From the IMG/VR virus record IMGVR_UViG_3300028414_000637: 20,000 bases of DNA; one strand, 5' to 3'. Below the pieces are notes generated by a model. The model was not told the origin of the DNA and made no database searches. It saw only the letters and a program-made list of their open reading frames with translations. Below are positions 7,664 to 19,611 of this stretch, in pieces. How positions within the stretch are numbered: the stretch's first letter is position 1; every line of letters starts with the position of its first letter. Made by a program: the position numbers and the translations under genes. The stretch is from an uncultured virus (IMG/VR IMGVR_UViG_3300028414_000637). Its lineage: Duplodnaviria; Heunggongvirae; Uroviricota; Caudoviricetes.

Positions 7664-8065
7664 ATGAAAAAGTTAGTATGGAAAGTACATCTTGTAGCAG
7701 ACCACGTTAATGCAGGAGGAACTGTTAGTGGAGGAAGGCTATTTGATATGGCTGATGTATCGGCATACACTATGATTAATGAAACATTTTTAACAGAAAG
7801 ACCGGACATTGCGGTAGTTACAAATAGTGCGGATGTTAAGTTTGTTGCTCCTGCATATGCATATGGCTTTATAGAATCCTATGCTGAAATTATAGAAGTA
7901 ACACCTGCAAGAATAAATGTATCAATTACGATGCAATACCGAGACAATAGAAGTTTAGATTGGTATGACTGTTTTGTGGGAACTTTTAGTTTTACATGTT
8001 TAGATAAAGCGACTCGCAAAGTTTATAAAATGTCAAAAGAGGAAATGAATGAAATTAAAAGCTAA
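7664..8065 (+). CDS. Hotdog-fold acyl-CoA thioesterase (YciA-like)
   Basis: HVNAGGTVSGGRLFDMAD, VVT, VKFVAP and FSFTCLD. Confidence 0.8.
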   Translation: MKKLVWKVHLVADHVNAGGTVSGGRLFDMADVSAYTMINETFLTERPDIAVVTNSADVKFVAPAYAYGFIESYAEIIEVTPARINVSITMQYRDNRSLDWYDCFVGTFSFTCLDKATRKVYKMSKEEMNEIKS

Positions 8066-8963
8066 AGTTTTAGTTACCGGCGGAGCAGGATTTATAGGAA
8101 CAGAGTTGGTAACCCAACTGTTGTCTAATGGGTATTCGGTTACAATACTAGATAAAAAAGATAAGCCCGAGAATATAGATAGTAGGGTAAAATATATTCA
8201 AGGAGATTTACAAAATGCGGCACGTTGTGTTATGGCATGTGCGGGACAAGAGTTTATAATTCATTTAGCCGCAAAGCCTCGTATACCAGAGAGTTTCCTC
8301 AATCCAGATGAATACTTTGATAATAATGTAACAGGTACACGTAATATTCTAACAGCCGCAAGTGCAGTTAGAGTACGTAAATTTGTGTTTGCAGGCAGTA
8401 GTTCAGTATATGGAAATAATCAAACACCCCATAAACCTTATCACAAACCAGACCCACTCAACTACTATGCTATGACTAAGTTGTTTGGCGAACATCTATG
8501 TAAACAATACAAGAATATGTTCGATTTAAATTATAATATTCTACGTTTTTTCACAGTGTATTCAGAGAACCAACCTAATTCTAATACAGGCGGACTGATG
8601 ATAGGTAAATTTGGTAGACTTGCTAACGAAGGAGAGCCGTTAACGGTTCATGGCGACGGAGAATATAAGAGAGATTATATACATGTTTCTGATGTAGCAA
8701 AGGCCTGCATAGCGAGTATTGAATCAAAAGTAAGAAATGAAATATTTAATGTTGGTACAGGTACGAACATATCAGTAAATGGTGTAGTAGATATCATTAA
8801 GAAGTTTAAAGATGTTAAGGTATTACATGAAGCAAATCCAAGAGGATATGCTAGGGATACTCTAGCAGATATAAGTAAAGCAAAGAAGCTATTGGGATGG
8901 GAACCAAAGATAGAACAAGTACAAGGAATAACAAACACATACAAGAGGATATTTAATGAATAA
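8049..8963 (+). CDS. NAD-dependent nucleotide-sugar epimerase/dehydratase
   Basis: VLVTGGAGFIG, HLAA, SSSVYG, YAMTK (YxxxK), RDYIHVSDVA and FNVGTG. Confidence 0.93.
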   Translation: MKLKAKVLVTGGAGFIGTELVTQLLSNGYSVTILDKKDKPENIDSRVKYIQGDLQNAARCVMACAGQEFIIHLAAKPRIPESFLNPDEYFDNNVTGTRNILTAASAVRVRKFVFAGSSSVYGNNQTPHKPYHKPDPLNYYAMTKLFGEHLCKQYKNMFDLNYNILRFFTVYSENQPNSNTGGLMIGKFGRLANEGEPLTVHGDGEYKRDYIHVSDVAKACIASIESKVRNEIFNVGTGTNISVNGVVDIIKKFKDVKVLHEANPRGYARDTLADISKAKKLLGWEPKIEQVQGITNTYKRIFNE

Positions 8964-11079: not shown

Positions 11080-12118
11080 TAAACTAAAATTGTTAATTGT
11101 GGCACCAGGTGCGGGCAGTAACTTTCTAGGTATGAGATTGGGACTAAATGTAGCAGGTCATGTTAATCCTGATAAAATGCATGAATTCTTTTCGAACAGA
11201 GAATGCAGTAGTATATCTGATAAGGTAAGAGAACATTTCGGTATAGAAAATATAGGCGATAATATATGGGGAACAAATTACACTGAAAATGACCCAGAGA
11301 ATTTCGATAGCTATATGGAACATACATTCCCAAAAGCTATGAAAATCTGTAATAGATTTGATACTAGTAACGTTTATTCTGATATAAAGTACATAAATAA
11401 TTTGTTGGCTAGATTTGATAAAGTTAATAACGTGCATACTGACAAAGTATTAAACAATGCGATGATACATTCTTTAGAAAAGTTGCAATGGCACAAGTAC
11501 ACTCCTTTATATAGGGAACCTATTTATTGGCTGAGTAGTTTAGAAGCCTCAATGAATGAATATTATAATAGTCAAAAAGACTTACCAAAGTCTCATCTTA
11601 ACAGACAGCCTATTGACACACCACAGTGGAAAAATGTATATAAGTTTATACAAGAATTCAATACTATCGCTTTCGAATGTCATAAATTAGAGGATGAAAC
11701 ACTTCATTCAATAGAACACTATCTGCCTTTGGCTATAAATACACGTGATAAACTATCAGATATAGCTAATATATGCGTTGTACATACAGAACAAAGTGTA
11801 TGTAGTTTTGTAACAGATATATTAAATTTGAAACATATGCGGGAAACCATTTTAAATAACCAAAAAACTATAGCGTACATGTTGCCTTCAAATGATGATG
11901 AATGCAAACATGCTGATAATGTAGTAAGCTATAGAAAGATGTTTTATGATAATGACCCAACAGAGATACGTAAGCTATTTGTATTTTTTGATAAAGGAGA
12001 ATACTTTGATAAAAATAGAGAAACAGAAATAAAAGCATTTAAAGATTATCATTTGGGTAATGTAGATTTTTATGTAAATAATTGGTTAGATAACAGCGAG
12101 GAAATACATGCAACTTGA
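11066..12118 (+). CDS. Paralogue 3 of the same family
   Basis: N-terminal VAPGAGSNFL; C-terminal VSYRKMF..EIRKLFVFF..F......AFKDYH..N. Confidence 0.55.
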   Translation: MLKSDKLKLLIVAPGAGSNFLGMRLGLNVAGHVNPDKMHEFFSNRECSSISDKVREHFGIENIGDNIWGTNYTENDPENFDSYMEHTFPKAMKICNRFDTSNVYSDIKYINNLLARFDKVNNVHTDKVLNNAMIHSLEKLQWHKYTPLYREPIYWLSSLEASMNEYYNSQKDLPKSHLNRQPIDTPQWKNVYKFIQEFNTIAFECHKLEDETLHSIEHYLPLAINTRDKLSDIANICVVHTEQSVCSFVTDILNLKHMRETILNNQKTIAYMLPSNDDECKHADNVVSYRKMFYDNDPTEIRKLFVFFDKGEYFDKNRETEIKAFKDYHLGNVDFYVNNWLDNSEEIHAT

Positions 12119-12623
12119 GTTGATTAGTGAAACAGATAAAAGATTAAGACAAACTTGTGTTAAACATGAAATAGATGCGGCGACTGAAGGCCTAGTATAT
12201 GATATGATTGCAAAAATGCAAGAACACGATGGTATAGGATTAGCGGCACCACAGTTAGGTGTTATGGAACAATTATTTGTTATAGGACACAAAGATGTTG
12301 GTTTTGTTGTTTGTATAAACCCAACATGGGCACCAACAACAGAAGCAAAATTAGAATCATTCCAAGAAGGCTGTTTAAGTTTTCCACATCTAGCACTAAC
12401 AATAGAACGATACAATCAGGTACATTGTACATTCACTAATCTAAAAGGTGAAACAAAGACACAGTTATTTAATGGCGTATGGGCCCAAGCAATACAACAT
12501 GAACATGACCACTTGATGGGCATAACATTTGATAAAAGAGCAAAGACAAGCCAATTAAGTAGAGCCCAGGCAGTTCGTAGAGAAAAAATAAAAAGAATTA
12601 AGAAAAAGAACAAGGACAAGTGA
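12108..12623 (+). CDS. def: Peptide deformylase
   Basis: All three signature motifs are present: GIGLAAPQ, EGCLS and QHEHDHL. Confidence 0.96.
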   Translation: MQLELISETDKRLRQTCVKHEIDAATEGLVYDMIAKMQEHDGIGLAAPQLGVMEQLFVIGHKDVGFVVCINPTWAPTTEAKLESFQEGCLSFPHLALTIERYNQVHCTFTNLKGETKTQLFNGVWAQAIQHEHDHLMGITFDKRAKTSQLSRAQAVRREKIKRIKKKNKDK

Positions 12624-14636: not shown

Positions 14637-14665
14637 TTGACACTGGAATTTACTTGTGCTATAAT
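14637..14665 (+). promoter_or_regulatory. Perfect-consensus sigma70 promoter with extended -10
   Basis: TTGACA (14637-14642), 17 bp, TATAAT (14660-14665), with TG at 14657-14658. Confidence 0.85.
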
Positions 14666-14672
14666 ACAACTT

Positions 14673-14702
14673 ATGTTACCCGAGTTGGGTAGCATTTTTT
14701 TT
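14673..14702 (+). terminator. Terminator-like hairpin in the leader of the exported protein gene
   Basis: ATGTTACCC-GAGTT-GGGTAGCAT running into an 8-T tract (14695-14702), immediately before the AAGGAGG RBS. Confidence 0.55.
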
Positions 14703-14716
14703 AAGGAGGACTACTT

Positions 14717-15073
14717 ATGAAAAAAGTAACACTAACAGGTCTGCTAGTTGCGGCCTTATTTACAACATCAGCGATGGCTGAAGGAACGTCTGTATCAGAC
14801 GATATGACGTTTTCTCTATCACTTGAAAGAGCGATTGAGGCAAATACACAAAACGGTGAGTTTTCAGTAGCAAAACCACTATTTGGTATCACTGCATCTT
14901 ACGGTGCAAAATGGGACATCGATGCTGATGGAAAAGATTTTTTAGATTTGAACAAGCAAATGTTAAACTTTTCATTCCCGCTACAAGATAATGTAACAAT
15001 TTATCTTAAAAATGATTTGAACGATTCATTCGAAAGAACTGAATCAGTAATCGGAACATCAATTACATTTTAA
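14717..15073 (+). CDS. Exported small beta-strand protein, outer-membrane-protein-like
   Basis: Signal peptide MKKVTLTGLLVAALFTTSAMA, alternating beta-strand pattern and C-terminal aromatic residue (VIGTSITF). Confidence 0.65.
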   Translation: MKKVTLTGLLVAALFTTSAMAEGTSVSDDMTFSLSLERAIEANTQNGEFSVAKPLFGITASYGAKWDIDADGKDFLDLNKQMLNFSFPLQDNVTIYLKNDLNDSFERTESVIGTSITF

Positions 15074-15081
15074 TTAATGTA

Positions 15082-15112
15082 TTGACTTATATACGTTTAT
15101 CGTGTATAAATA
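15082..15112 (+). promoter_or_regulatory. tmRNA promoter (sigma70 overlapping T4-late TATAAATA)
   Basis: TTGACT (15082-15087), 17 bp, TATAAA(TA) (15105-15112). Confidence 0.7.
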
Positions 15113-15116
15113 ATAT

Positions 15117-15402
15117 TGTAGACGTTGAAGCAACGTAGACGTATTCTGGACTGGGGGGCAGTACCCCACAGCTCCACCATAATTACTTTGTAGCGTAAAA
15201 ACTACAAATTTACGGCATAGAGTAATTATGATGGGGCTGAACTAGGATCGACAGGTGCGAAAGTGAAGTGGAGTTTACCGGATGACTGCGTTATTGGTCA
15301 AAAACTATAATTGCAAACGCAAATTATGAGCCAGAAATGGCATTAGCGGCTTAGTTTTAAGCACGTAGGGGTTGATGGCTTACCTGGCAACAGAAAAGTC
15401 AT
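15117..15402 (+). ncRNA. ssrA: Circularly permuted two-piece tmRNA (alphaproteobacterial type)
   Basis: The acceptor piece ends in a T-arm plus CAGCTCC-A-CCA (to 15179). The intervening segment is 15180-15232. The coding piece starts GGGGCTG at 15233, giving a G3.U alanine identity pair. Tag frame 15313-15354 encodes ANANYEPEMALAA*. The 3' end has ACCTGGCAACAGAA. Confidence 0.93.
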
Positions 15403-15432
15403 ATTTTAATTTGGGGTTAATAAAGAAAATAT

Positions 15433-15771
15433 ATGGCATACGTAGTAAACGAGAATTGTATTAAATGTAAATATACTGATTGTGTTGAAGTTTGCCCAGT
15501 AGATTGTTTTTACGTTGGCGAAGATATGTTAGTAATTAACCCAGACGAATGCATTGACTGTGGTGTGTGCGAACCAGAGTGTCCAGCAGATGCAATCATT
15601 CCAGATACATCGCCATTGTTCACGCAACGGTTGTATGATATAAATGAGAAATGGTCACAGCAATGGCCTGTCATTACAGAGAGAGAAGACCCTCTTCCAG
15701 ATGCAGACTCACTAAACCCTGCAATGGGATATACAGGAGATAAGACAAAGTTGTTAGACGATTATGACTGA
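15433..15771 (+). CDS. fdxA: 7Fe ([3Fe-4S][4Fe-4S]) ferredoxin, FdxA family
   Basis: [47 protein letters not shown]. Confidence 0.93.
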
Positions 15772-16711: not shown

Positions 16712-17250
16712 TAATAACTAAAAAAGATTATGGTTATCCTGTTTGGGTAGTGGAAGATGTATTCAAATTAGGTCTTGAGGATGCAGTATTAAAACAGTCT
16801 AATGATTTGCCATTTATTCCAATGGAAGGCAAACGTACAGACAAGACGGGCAAGAGAAACTGGATGAACCAGTCAAGTCATTCGTCTTTCCTAGAAGTTT
16901 GTGAATATTTTGACAGTAGACTTATGAAAGAAAAGTTTAGTGAAATTTGTGAAAAAGACTTTACAAATTTAGGCACACGAATCGAACTATGCAAAGATGC
17001 AAAAGGAAGTTGGTTACATAATCATTTTGATGATAAAGCAAAACTATTTACTTTACAGATATACCTATCAGACACAGACACAAGTACAAGTTTCATGAAA
17101 ACAAATACTCCTGCTAGAAAGAATTCTGGTTGGTTCTTTGCAAATACTGGAACAGAACTACATGGATTGAAGCCTTTGCTAAACAACAGAGTAAGTATTA
17201 TTGTAAACTATTGTGATGAAACCTGGAGAGATAGGACAGTAATCGTATGA
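16708..17250 (+). CDS. 2OG-Fe(II) oxygenase-like protein
   Basis: WLHNHFDD (HxD), LQIYL, LHG and RVS..VNY. The start is placed at the ATGA overlap (16708). Confidence 0.75.
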   Translation: MIITKKDYGYPVWVVEDVFKLGLEDAVLKQSNDLPFIPMEGKRTDKTGKRNWMNQSSHSSFLEVCEYFDSRLMKEKFSEICEKDFTNLGTRIELCKDAKGSWLHNHFDDKAKLFTLQIYLSDTDTSTSFMKTNTPARKNSGWFFANTGTELHGLKPLLNNRVSIIVNYCDETWRDRTVIV

Positions 17251-17969
17251 AGTATAAAAATAGTAATCAACGAACAAAAGATTATCTTTCTAAGTTTGAT
17301 AAAAACAAAGTTTTGCAAAACTTAGTTGGAACTGATACTCCCATAATATTAGACATTGGTGCAAATATAGGACAAACAGTAGATAAGTTAAAGACTATAT
17401 GGGAACATGCAGTAATACATTCTATAGAGCCTTTACCAGATGCATATCAACAATTATACTTAACAAAAGGTAGATTACCCGGCGTTCATGTATATAATAC
17501 AGCAATTGGTTCAACAAATGGTTGGCAAGATTTTAATATTAATAAACACCAGCCTATGCTCAGTGGATTTTATAAATTAAATGCAGACAGCAAGGATAGT
17601 ATTGCTATCAATAAACCAGAGAAAGCCCATAAGAATTTCTTAGAATCTGAAACTATACAATTTCCAGTTATAACGTTAGATAAATTTACAAGTGAAAATA
17701 ATATAGATTACATAGATATGATTAAAATGGATGCTCAGGGAGCCGAACCAGAGATATTAGAAAATGGAATTGAAACACTAAAGAATACCCGAATCGTTCT
17801 TACTGAATTATCATTTTATGACTTATATGAAAAGCAGTGTAGTTTTTATGATATAGAAAAAACCCTGATTCCCTTGGGTTTTGAATTATTCGATATCGCA
17901 CATGTTAGTAAAAACCCAATGAATGGTCGTACAGATTGGGCTGATTTAATTTATATTAAAAAAAATTAA
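17247..17969 (+). CDS. FkbM-family SAM-dependent methyltransferase
   Basis: ILDIGANIGQ, SIEP, TLD.F, IDMIKMDAQGAE and TELSF. Confidence 0.9.
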   Translation: MKYKNSNQRTKDYLSKFDKNKVLQNLVGTDTPIILDIGANIGQTVDKLKTIWEHAVIHSIEPLPDAYQQLYLTKGRLPGVHVYNTAIGSTNGWQDFNINKHQPMLSGFYKLNADSKDSIAINKPEKAHKNFLESETIQFPVITLDKFTSENNIDYIDMIKMDAQGAEPEILENGIETLKNTRIVLTELSFYDLYEKQCSFYDIEKTLIPLGFELFDIAHVSKNPMNGRTDWADLIYIKKN

Positions 17970-17977
17970 AAAAGTTG

Positions 17978-18006
17978 TTGACAATACCGAATCATTATGC
18001 TATATT
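17978..18006 (+). promoter_or_regulatory. sigma70 promoter driving the structured RNA
   Basis: TTGACA (17978-17983), 17 bp, TATATT (18001-18006), with TG extension and an A-rich UP-like tract. Confidence 0.8.
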
Positions 18007-18012
18007 AATAAC

Positions 18013-18229
18013 ATAAGCATCAGAGAGTTTAGCGACTCAATGATTGTAGTGCAAGGAAGAGGCTGTTACCAGACGGTCGAACTTGACTAGTTAGGGGTGG
18101 TACCCAGGTTCAAAGCTGAGAGGCTAAGAGTCACATCGTTCTACCGAACGGAACTAGGTTCCCTGGATTCAGAATGGTATCTGTGTCGAGGGGTTGGGGG
18201 TGTAACCAAGTCCCTCCTACTTTGCTTAT
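18013..18229 (+). ncRNA. Unassigned highly structured ncRNA (~217 nt)
   Basis: GC-rich island with no credible ORF. The ends pair (ATAAGCA/TGCTTAT; GTAG/CTAC) and enclose several hairpins, including a GAGA tetraloop. Confidence 0.7.
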
Positions 18230-18263
18230 ATTTTCTGATTACAATACCAAGTAATCAAAAATT

Positions 18264-18330
18264 AAGAGACGGTTGGCAAACCATATTTTACTCACTTTCA
18301 TTTTATATTGCTGACTGTCTCTTTTTTATT
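18264..18330 (+). terminator. 16-bp hairpin with 28-nt loop and T tail (terminator and/or antisense-type sRNA)
   Basis: AAGAGACGGTTGGCAA (18264-18279) pairs with TTGCTGACTGTCTCTT (18308-18323) using G-U pairs, followed by TTTTATTT. Confidence 0.6.
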
Positions 18331-18497
18331 TCCCCAACTTATCAACAACTCAATTAAAAAGTGTATTGATTTAATATCTTTTTTGTGTTACATTCATAAA
18401 TATGAAAGTAACAATAAGGTTACAACCAGGCATCAATCGAGCCTGGTCTAATTATGTGAGCAACGTGGTAAAGACGTTAAGCAGAAGGAGATAAAAA

Positions 18498-19460
18498 ATG
18501 GATGCACTCACCCTATGGATGGCAATAGGTTTTCTATTTGCCGCATATTCAGTAATAGCAAACGATTCAGTACAAACTCTTGGTACTTGGATTGCATCAA
18601 ATAACGAAAAATTTAATTGGAAGATAATGTGGGGAGCCGCAAGTGCGGTACTGCTTTATACTTTGTGGTATGGTTGGACAACTAATGGTGGAGATATTAG
18701 TTACGGACGATTAAACAAAATTCCATTTCAAGAGATTCAATGGTATCATGCCGCCGCACCAGGCTTACTATTGATATTAACAAGAATAGGTGTACCAGTA
18801 AGTACAAGTTTCTTAGTGTTAAGTGCATTTGCTAGTACATTTATATTAGAGAAGATGCTAGTCAAATCAATGATGGGTTATGCAGTTGCGGCTGTGGCGG
18901 CATATGTAATCTGGATTGGTGTTACTAAAATACTTGACGAAGCAAAACCAGTCGCTGAAAATCATAAAATGTATTGGCGAGTAGGTCAGTGGATAACAAC
19001 TGGCTTTTTATGGTTCACTTGGTTATCACATGATATGGCAAACATTGCCGTATTCTTACCAAGACAAATCCCATTTGATTTAATGGTAATGGTAAGTGCA
19101 GTATTTGTATTTGGCTTAGGTTATATATTTTATACTGGTGGTGGTAAAATACAAAACATCGTAATTGAAAAACATAATACACGTTATGTAAGAAGTGCTA
19201 CAATAATTGATTGTGTATATTTTCTAATTCTTTGGTTCTTCAAGGAACTGAATGATATACCAATGTCAACAACTTGGGTATTCGTAGGATTACTTTGTGG
19301 CCGTGAACTTGCTATGGCAACAATTACTGGTAAAGAAAAGTTTAAAACTGTTTTCCCTCTTGTGACCAAAGACTTCATAAAGATGATGATTGGCTTAGGT
19401 GCAAGTGTTGGTGTAGTTTTATCTATTCACTATATAATCGTTCCTAACGGTTTGCACTAA
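18498..19460 (+). CDS. PiT/PHO4-like inorganic phosphate (or anion) transporter
   Basis: Multi-pass membrane protein with duplicated PiT-like signatures IANDSVQT..., GVPVSTS, SHDMANIA and IPMSTT. AAGGAG RBS. Confidence 0.7.
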   Translation: MDALTLWMAIGFLFAAYSVIANDSVQTLGTWIASNNEKFNWKIMWGAASAVLLYTLWYGWTTNGGDISYGRLNKIPFQEIQWYHAAAPGLLLILTRIGVPVSTSFLVLSAFASTFILEKMLVKSMMGYAVAAVAAYVIWIGVTKILDEAKPVAENHKMYWRVGQWITTGFLWFTWLSHDMANIAVFLPRQIPFDLMVMVSAVFVFGLGYIFYTGGGKIQNIVIEKHNTRYVRSATIIDCVYFLILWFFKELNDIPMSTTWVFVGLLCGRELAMATITGKEKFKTVFPLVTKDFIKMMIGLGASVGVVLSIHYIIVPNGLH

Positions 19461-19577
19461 GAAGATAAATAACTTTATAGAACAAAACTAATAACTAAGT
19501 ACGCATAGGATTTTAAAAAAGGTATAAGTGTGTCGGACACTGCGTAACACATTCTGACATTCCACAAAACAAATTTT

Positions 19578-19611
19578 AATGGAGCCCATTCTTCGGAGTG
19601 GGTTTTCCATT
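19578..19611 (+). terminator. Stable C(UUCG)G hairpin / terminator
   Basis: AATGGA-GCCCATTC-TTCG-GAGTGGGT-TT-TCCATT. Confidence 0.75.

Follow-up and report, generated by a model that had tools for sequence, protein, structure and literature searches.

A divergent manA-family RNA in an uncultured marine phage looks like an independent RNA gene rather than a switch for the next gene

The manA family and a divergent clade

GOLLD and ROOL are large, ornate phage-associated noncoding RNAs, often found beside tRNA genes and reported to form RNA-only multimers; they are several-fold larger than the manA RNA that concerns us here, and belong to unrelated Rfam families. A 2010 study (PMC2864571) described the manA RNA in marine metagenomes, T4-like cyanophages, and two gamma-proteobacteria, and Rfam, which lists the family as RF01745 with the type 'Cis-reg', updated its structure in release 14.3 (PMC7779021). 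A bioRxiv preprint based on cryo-electron microscopy (cryo-EM), 'Structural assemblies for an RNA world' (10.64898/2026.07.01.735769), reports manA RNAs that build pentamer-based decamers and a 60-mer cage. We report a manA-family RNA in 20,000 nucleotides (nt) of DNA, hereafter the window, from the uncultured virus IMGVR_UViG_3300028414_000637, an uncultivated viral record of 101,626 base pairs (bp) with a CheckV completeness of 28%. The family is already known, and the main interest of the locus is that the RNA looks like an independent gene, not a switch for the gene that follows it; the explanation we favor, with a probability of roughly 0.6, is a trans-acting, self-associating structured RNA of the manA family, made from its own host-type promoter in a marine phage.

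An Rfam cmscan at gathering thresholds matches manA RNA to 18028-18226 (+) of the window over model positions 1-192 of 192, with 55.5 bits (E 5.7e-12) against a gathering score of 55.2. Because this margin is very thin, membership was tested independently. The conserved family words (the GGUGGUA loop, the UACC-type loops, and AGUG after the closing helix) are matched in the cmscan alignment, and we conclude that the window RNA is almost certainly a divergent member of the manA family. The original prediction, which had seen a structured RNA of no recognized family and had itself named an Rfam match as what would remove the novelty, must yield on this point, since RF01745 matches at full length above the gathering score. 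With Rfam at E up to 1 on 17900-18520, no ribozyme family was matched, and the only match outside manA was a chance one (mir-6 on the long hairpin, 27.5 bits against 58); none of the results gathered here speaks for a ribozyme, sponge, or decoy function as such. Rfam scans of the window gave no sequence or model match to GOLLD or ROOL, and no tRNA was called at the RNA stretch.

Among 50,697 phage records, the sole nucleotide match of the whole window is the RNA itself, in Pelagibacter phage Mosig EXVC030M, where it lies at 108165-108391 of MT647606 in an unannotated intergenic stretch, is 74-75% identical to the window RNA, and scores 64.0 bits on RF01745; tblastn of the 576- and 320-amino-acid window products against the same records gave no match. 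A search pattern made of the two blocks invariant between window and Mosig found at least 119 viral-contig loci (cited below by L numbers), and blastn followed by a covariance model built here (R1) recognized the RNA in 44 of 121 sources among the matches listed: the window, Mosig, and 42 viral loci, two of them truncated by contig ends. The remaining 77 sources were chance pattern hits. A pattern scan of cellular genomes listed at least 120 loci, of which 100 (L122-L221) were tested with R1 and none matched. Another IMG/VR record (L353 260-592) carries a 100% identical RNA together with the 3′ module described below, so that the same phage population has been assembled more than once.

An Rfam scan of 20 related loci found full-length manA in all 20; 12 reach the gathering score, and the other 8 score 45.3-54.7 bits (range for the relatives, 45.3-72.6 bits). 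The clade lies at the edge of the Rfam model, and the cut-off would miss much of it; with some 40% of scanned relatives (8/20) below that score, manA is under-annotated in marine viromes. The clade shares with manA as catalogued the full-length model match, the order of the helices, the loop words GGUGGUA, UACC, and GNRA, and a marine phage origin. Besides its position at the model edge it differs in that i) it has an extra outer helix, P0, absent from the model; ii) its setting is not cyanophage, but the pelagiphage Mosig and an uncultivated phage without a close cultured relative; and iii) most copies are arranged as promoter, RNA, and terminator, rather than as part of a 5′ untranslated region (UTR). 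We found no paper on manA as a free-standing gene or in pelagiphages, in a literature search that most subscription journals lay outside.

A covarying fold with strictly kept loops

The promoter, the RNA, its helices, and the 3′ flank are laid out in the window as follows, with loops numbered as explained below.

17978-18006 (+): sigma70-type promoter; −35 TTGACA 17978-17983, 17-nt spacer, TG 17998-17999, −10 TATATT 18001-18006
18013-18229 (+): manA-family RNA, ~217 nt, from the 5′ strand to the 3′ strand of P0; Rfam match 18028-18226
18013-18019 (+): 5′ strand of P0, ATAAGCA, pairing with TGCTTAT 18223-18229; outer closing helix, outside the Rfam model
18021-18042 (+): P1 hairpin, CA..GAGT/ACTC..TG, with a purine-rich internal loop
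18046-18049 (+): 5′ strand of P2, GTAG, pairing with CTAC 18217-18220; closes the multi-helix core
18052-18085 (+): P3 arm; CAAG 18052-18055/CTTG 18082-18085 and GGCTGT 18061-18066/ACGGTC 18073-18078, loop L3 TTACCAG 18066-18072
18087-18157 (+): long-range helix CTAGTT 18087-18092/AACTAG 18152-18157, enclosing hairpins P5, P6, and P7
within 18087-18157 (+): P5, GGG/CCC, loop L5 GTGGTA 18097-18102
within 18087-18157 (+): P6, GGTTC/GAGTC plus AGCT/GGCT, GNRA loop L6 GAGA 18118-18121
within 18087-18157 (+): P7, CGTTC/GAACG, loop L7 TACC 18142-18145
18161-18193 (+): P8 arm; CCCT 18161-18164/GGGG 18190-18193 and CAGA 18170-18173/TCTG 18180-18183, loop L8 ATGGTA 18174-18179
18196-18216 (+): P9 hairpin, GGGGG 18196-18200/CCCTC 18212-18216, 11-nt loop L9 TGTAACCAAGT 18201-18211
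18236-18327 (+): 3′ module; hairpin 18236-18257 (loop with UACC), 16-bp stem 18264-18279/18308-18323 with a 28-nt loop, T run 18322-18327

The single-sequence folding energy of the RNA is unremarkable and uninformative (z −1.41), and the case for it rests on comparison with its relatives. RNAalifold on a MAFFT alignment of the 32 distinct complete sequences (duplicates and the two truncated copies left out) predicted 49 pairs, of which 32 show compensatory changes. A second, model-guided alignment, to which all counts out of 34 refer, holds 34 distinct sequences of the 44 (8 duplicates and 2 truncated copies left out); standard pairs fill 94.9% of its 2063 cells, compared to 74.9% in shuffles (none of 500 shuffles reaches 94.9%), whereas sliding the partners by 1-3 columns leaves only 33-48% of cells paired. 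Both sides have changed at 47 of 61 pairs, and the covariation score of the whole structure is 0.542 against 0.178 in shuffles. Fitting to the model favors structure in this second alignment, and the independent MAFFT alignment with RNAalifold gives the same architecture. Comparison among homologs, which the original prediction had set as its test, thus confirms a real and intricately folded RNA whose manA consensus structure is kept by compensatory changes.

Most of the core is almost fully paired across the 34 sequences: 100% for P2 (helix 4; changes on both sides at 3 of 4 pairs), 100% and 97.6% for the P3 arm (helices 5 and 6), 97.6-100% for helices 7-10 (18087-18157), 98.5% and 93.3% for the P8 arm (helices 11 and 12), and 100% for P9 (helix 13; changes on both sides at 2 of 5 pairs). 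P0 (helix 1) is paired in 87.7% of cells of this model-fitted alignment, with changes on both sides at 7 of 7 pairs, and individual sequences carry variants such as AATGC/GCATT in Mosig, TAAGTAG/TTACTTA in L035, and, one pair shorter, ATAGCAA/TTGCTAT in L117; by eye, the printed strands of L087, the closest relative, show the same shortened pairing as L117. Helix length was discarded as a measure of P0: the longest helix between the 5′ and 3′ ends averages 6.6 bp, compared to 5.4 bp with shuffled tails, and in such AT-rich DNA length alone is no evidence. The P1 hairpin is present in every relative (at least 5 bp in 26/32, only 4 bp in 6/32), and is variable in length and sequence; its inner part aligns badly, with 54.5% of cells paired.

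Seven of the helices in the original prediction are borne out by this covariation (ATAAGCA/TGCTTAT, GTAG/CTAC, CAAG/CTTG, GGCTGT/ACGGTC, GGTTC/GAGTC with AGCT-GAGA-GGCT, and CGTTC/GAACG), and its 5′ hairpin GAGT/ACTC stands as a hairpin found in each sequence, though one of variable length and bad alignment. Two others fall, CTAGG/CCTGG with 64.7% of cells paired and GAGGG/CCCTC plus TTGG/CCAA with 68.2%; a structure made of both together with the two proposed loop pairings covaries no better than shuffles (score 0.092, against 0.091). Their places are taken by the covarying helices CTAGTT/AACTAG, CCCT/GGGG, and GGGGG/CCCTC, which are 98-100% paired.

The hairpin loops are kept even more strictly than the stems. 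L5 is invariably GUGGUA (34/34), L6 is a GNRA tetraloop in 31/34 (GAGA in the window), and L3 carries UACC or CACC in 32/34. GGUA-type and UACC-type loops can be combined in four ways, and each combination is complementary over at least 4 nt in 24-32 of 34 sequences; pair by pair, runs of at least 4 nt occur in 28/34 for L5-L7, 27/34 for L3-L8, and 19/34 for L8-L9. The two TACC and two TGGTA stretches, proposed in the original prediction to form pseudoknots, do prove to be hairpin loops, complementary in 83-94% of cells; pseudoknot pairing as such finds no covariation.

These loops invite comparison with the cryo-EM assemblies, which according to the preprint (10.64898/2026.07.01.735769) are held by intermolecular kissing loops, L5-L7′ with either L8-L9′ or L3-L8′, plus an L6-P6′ GNRA contact. 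If hairpins are counted so that the GNRA loop becomes L6, then L5 (GUGGUA), L7 (UACC), L3 (UACC), and L8 (AUGGUA) would be the complementary sets already spotted in the original prediction, and the conserved loops would fit the kissing loops of the preprint's manA assemblies. On that numbering, and as far as sequence alone can speak, the window's GNRA loop and GGUA/UACC loop pairs fit the L6-P6′, L5-L7′, and L3-L8′ contacts of a pentamer of the pho34_A767 type. The preprint RNAs belong to the same Rfam family, and the window RNA likewise bears its GNRA loop on a long, P6-like arm; they differ in that oligomers are described there for the preprint's constructs only, whereas the window RNA is known here from its sequence. 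That the RNA self-assembles in cells is a possibility to which we would give rather less than even odds.

An open reading frame (ORF) with a GTG start (18097-18357, 86 amino acids) overlaps the RNA, and the stretch might on that account be taken for protein-coding; the original prediction had named its conservation at the codon level as evidence that would count against an RNA. The frame is not conserved. Within the RNA at least one stop interrupts the aligned frame in 21 of 34 sequences, at codon 7 in the 90% identical L087; the product has no Pfam hit, and helix substitutions are compensatory. We regard a protein-coding explanation as having next to no chance of being correct.

An RNA gene or a leader

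The window promoter scores 11/12 in a promoter scan, with TG preceding the −10 hexamer, and is one of only three sites of at least 11/12 in the 20-kb window; ordinary promoter-like matches are in no excess there (74, compared to 95.3 in shuffles). By eye, an A-rich tract (17958-17973) lies upstream. The predicted start, at about 18012-18014, would fall on the first bases of P0, and GC content, about 0.28-0.35 in the flanks, reaches 0.47 at 18000-18199. The near-consensus sigma70 promoter with its predicted start at the terminal helix, the GC-rich body, and the overall picture of a promoter-driven, multi-domain, noncoding phage RNA were all anticipated in the original prediction, and all survive the promoter scan, the covarying fold, and the nonconserved ORF.

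Relatives carry the −35 and −10 hexamers upstream of the RNA as well, with different spacer sequences. By the rule of the scanning tool, a promoter is present in 26 of 37 distinct contexts, compared to 14 of 261 background windows taken from these loci, and 25 of these 26 end at offsets 47-50 of the 58-nt search window. Intrinsic terminators follow in 22 of the 36 contexts with enough flank, as against 22 of 261 background windows; 20 of the 22 begin no more than 3 nt from the 3′ end of the model, and two further terminators, in L107 and L120, were missed by the rule or had short flanks and were seen by eye. Most relatives carry a self-contained cassette of promoter, RNA, and terminator. The 5′ UTR position implied by the label 'Cis-reg' is not what these loci display, with a terminator following in 22 of 36 contexts; such a position describes context, not fold, and failing it leaves membership in manA intact.

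Could the RNA nevertheless be a riboswitch or other cis-regulatory leader that senses a metabolite and controls read-through into the next gene, here 18498-19460? The 2010 description by Weinberg et al. (PMC2864571) considered manA probably cis-regulatory, and probably a riboswitch, in potential 5′ UTRs. The order promoter, aptamer, terminator, gene is formally that of a riboswitch; an ORF lies within 25-28 nt in Mosig, L097, L004, L066, and L108; the motif's namesake, a gene of the mannose-6-phosphate isomerase/cytidylyltransferase type, is next in L016, L003, and L013; and RNA-Seq contigs run from the window RNA into the following ORF (see below). The predicted folds tell a different story. 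When the whole transcripts of 20 relatives are folded at minimum energy, P0 and the terminator coexist in 17, and in none of those 17 does the RNA body pair with the terminator region or an anti-terminator pairing appear, so that the mutual exclusion of aptamer and terminator typical of a riboswitch is absent from these thermodynamic predictions.

The downstream genes are as varied as the terminator stems, which have no common sequence between loci. They comprise at least six unrelated families, among them the mannose-6-phosphate isomerase/cytidylyltransferase type already mentioned, a radical SAM/SPASM protein (L030), rubrerythrin (Mosig), several unknown families, and the permease-like protein of the window; elsewhere the RNA is flanked by tRNA-Leu and tRNA-Trp (L073), followed by tRNA-Thr (L010), or faced by a convergent tRNA-Asn as the next gene (L267, the closest relative's contig), and the ORFs that come next in L035 run on the opposite strand. 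Many downstream genes have an ATAAATA-type word of their own (by eye), or a freshwater-2 leader (RF02980). The latter reaches the gathering score in 7 of 20 scanned loci, and falls just below it in 2 more; the conserved small gene that it leads comes straight after the manA terminator and encodes products that begin MGRP..NK, are 129-153 amino acids long, and belong to no family. The freshwater-2 positions include:

L055 1405-1488 (+): freshwater-2 leader, RF02980
L014 1408-1491 (+): freshwater-2 leader, RF02980
L022 1423-1505 (+): freshwater-2 leader, RF02980
L050 1410-1486 (+): freshwater-2 leader, RF02980
L006 956-1039 (−): freshwater-2 leader, RF02980 (others are found elsewhere)

Coexistence of P0 and terminator, dissimilar terminator stems, unrelated downstream genes, and tRNA or convergent neighbors together argue against an obligate leader; in addition, neither Weinberg et al. 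(PMC2864571) nor the S-CREM1 paper names a manA ligand in its accessible text. We therefore consider the riboswitch explanation improbable. Five of the 20 scanned loci have a glutamine riboswitch (RF01739) about 130-270 nt upstream of manA, and in those phages manA sits within a block dense in structured RNAs:

L014 840-889 (+): glutamine riboswitch, RF01739
L055 842-889 (+): glutamine riboswitch, RF01739
L050 904-951 (+): glutamine riboswitch, RF01739
L029 1464-1513 and L006 1556-1603 (−): glutamine riboswitch, RF01739

On the 3′ side of the window RNA lies the 3′ module listed above (dG −27.2, z −6.63). L087 has the same layout at 85-205 (−), with different stem letters and part of the loop kept: in both loci a small hairpin precedes a 14-16-bp stem with a 28-29-nt loop, followed by a T run in the window. 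The module may be an atypical, leaky terminator. A 15-mer word of its loop occurs at 116 viral loci and was rejected as a marker of the module, which is common only to the identical L353 and to L267, the remaining loci showing the word in a ribosome-binding context on the opposite strand. On the minus strand of the module itself, the loop word resembles a ribosome-binding site, and the frame after it has 9 codons (19 in L087).

Twenty-four seawater or marine RNA-Seq runs contain 48-97% of the sampled words of 17900-18500, and four of them (X1, X2, X5, and X7) were compared over 17000-19600. These data are contigs, in which ends, strand, and level are unreadable, and their depths are per-contig means that also sum the RNAs of relatives and do not measure expression. 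With that proviso, contig depth over the RNA is 2461 (X1, an exact 110-nt piece), 294 (X2), 39 (X5), and 618 (X7), compared to 4.35, 5.3, 4.2, and 6.2 in the four runs over the upstream methyltransferase gene. Contigs start at 18036 (X1, a loose end), 18030 (X2), and 18023 (X5), just past the predicted start, and the X7 contig stops at 18319, by the T run; depth falls 8- to 30-fold after about 18320 in X7, and in X1 the contig that extends into the ORF is about 4- to 10-fold shallower than the RNA core. The contigs hint, if weakly, at an abundant transcript that starts near 18013.

A simpler account would make the RNA a passive 5′ module, co-transcribed with the next gene to stabilize or process its message, with neither ligand nor function in trans. 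P0 would bury the 5′ end of the transcript in a helix, and burial of a 5′ end in this way is a known means of slowing 5′-end-dependent decay; contigs that bridge RNA and ORF in three of the four runs, and Mosig-type loci without a terminator, also speak for it. We nonetheless think it unlikely, as the RNA is terminated within 3 nt of its end in 20 of 36 contexts, 60 conserved base pairs and invariant loops would be more than a simple stabilizer needs, and the depth drops in X7 and X1, weak as contigs make them, point the same way.

The genes around the RNA raise another alternative, a trans-acting protein-binding RNA (a sponge or decoy), possibly tied to translation or ribosome rescue, whose loops would be contacts for a protein or the ribosome. 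Rfam scans place a permuted transfer-messenger RNA (tmRNA) gene directly upstream of manA in L004 1109-1653 (−), L066 822-1335 (+), and L044 552-1337 (+). In the sub-clade that lacks a promoter, manA begins about 10-13 nt after the tmRNA (tmRNA 822-1115 and manA 1127-1335 in L066), and the other promoter-less contexts (L100/L108 and L101) share that upstream sequence; such adjacency suggests co-transcription and processing. In L073 775-2347 (−), manA lies inside a same-strand tRNA array (Ser, Gly, Thr, Leu, manA, Trp) and keeps its own promoter and terminator. Translation-related RNA genes nearby thus favor a protein or ribosome partner: a phage tmRNA 2.6 kb upstream in the window, tmRNA directly upstream in the three loci just named, and tRNA genes that flank the L073 copy and follow those of L010 and L267. 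So does conservation of the loops without covariation, as expected for a partner that is not RNA. No partner is known, however; phage RNA genes can lie in clusters because they are processed together or because insertions favor certain sites; and the GGUA/UACC complementarity in 24-32 of 34 sequences is more simply explained by RNA-RNA kissing, as seen by cryo-EM in other manA RNAs according to the preprint. We judge protein binding as the primary role to be a poor bet.

We wish to stress that a number of observations weigh against the trans-acting, self-associating RNA that we favor: i) covariation between loops was sought in the 34 sequences and none was found, so that partners, and contacts within or between molecules, cannot be assigned from sequence; ii) self-assembly in the preprint was seen in vitro with other manA sequences at high RNA and Mg, and assembly of the present clade would be an extrapolation from it; iii) the correspondence of our loops to the preprint's L numbers is our own presumptive mapping; iv) the window locus lacks a canonical terminator, its 3′ module failing the terminator rule; v) contigs bridge the RNA and the downstream ORF in three of four runs (X2 18030-19438, X1 18177-18719, and X5 18023-18759), transcription at the window locus is not cleanly stopped before the next gene, and the window RNA may be at least partly co-transcribed with the permease-like gene that follows; vi) Mosig and L097 lack a terminator, with a rubrerythrin ORF 25 nt downstream; vii) a sub-clade of five contexts lacks the promoter; and viii) in the promoter-less, tmRNA-linked L004, L066, and L108 an ORF with a ribosome-binding site begins 27-28 nt downstream.

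With these points taken into account, we still think it fairly likely that the clade is a free-standing RNA gene with a stand-alone function. In the explanation we favor, host RNA polymerase with sigma70 would start at about 18013 from the near-consensus extended −10 promoter, and the RNA, served by a host-type promoter, would presumably be made early. Its first seven bases would pair with its last seven (P0), closing a compact multi-helix fold; in most relatives a terminator within a few bases would then release a discrete RNA of about 220-260 nt able to act in trans, and the window RNA may be similarly discrete. The folded particle would associate with its own copies through the complementary GGUA and UACC loops and the GNRA loop, and might owe its putative role in the cell to that association.

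Neighboring features and significance

The next ORF begins 269 nt past the window RNA. Its 320-amino-acid product has no Pfam or PHROG hit, and is grouped by ESM Atlas with mostly viral 'phosphate/sulfate permease family' clusters (feature score 0.99, a lead only); the gene may be a phage auxiliary gene for phosphate uptake. Ahead of it lie a structured leader (18395-18500, z −3.96) and, by eye, a late-promoter-like ATAAATA word (18396-18402), and RNA-Seq contigs of other organisms match a short conserved stretch of it (18528-18608). This gene, auxiliary genes near the RNA, and other genes of the window are:

617-910: PAAR-like protein
920-2650: tape-measure-like protein
8049-8963 (+): nucleotide-sugar epimerase, auxiliary gene
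12108-12623 (+): peptide deformylase, auxiliary gene
15433-15771 (+): 4Fe-4S ferredoxin, auxiliary gene
17247-17969 (+): FkbM-type methyltransferase, auxiliary gene
18498-19460 (+): next gene, outside the RNA; probable phosphate/sulfate-permease-type membrane protein of 320 amino acids

The window tmRNA, at 15065-15445 (+), is of the permuted (alpha-type, two-piece) kind, with 123.3 bits on RF01849 and 116.4 on RF04321, and lies between a 118-amino-acid ORF and the ferredoxin gene; its tag peptide as called by ARAGORN is ANANYEPEMALAA. A permuted tmRNA may hint at an alphaproteobacterial host. Directly upstream of that ORF (14717-15073) and the tmRNA lies a sigma70 promoter that scores a full 12/12 and has TG (14637-14665, +), and 7 nt beyond it come a 10-bp terminator-like hairpin and T run (14673-14703); this element (14637-14703) could be a very short transcript or an attenuator.

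The manA RNA has been catalogued since 2010 as a riboswitch candidate without a ligand, and the clade adds comparative evidence against that label. It also fits the in vitro finding, as set out in the preprint, that manA RNAs build RNA-only assemblies. A broader proposition, which we offer tentatively and hold to be on the unlikely side, is that manA-type RNAs are not riboswitches but abundant, independently transcribed early phage RNAs that assemble in infected cells into RNA-only multimers or cages, in pelagiphages, giant marine phages, and cyanophages, and that often travel with tmRNA and tRNA genes. The family now extends beyond cyanophages to a cultured phage of SAR11, Mosig, where it had gone unannotated and which offers a tractable system for the function of the RNA. 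If RNA-only multimers do form in cells, the window locus would encode a natural, highly expressed viral RNA nano-compartment or scaffold.

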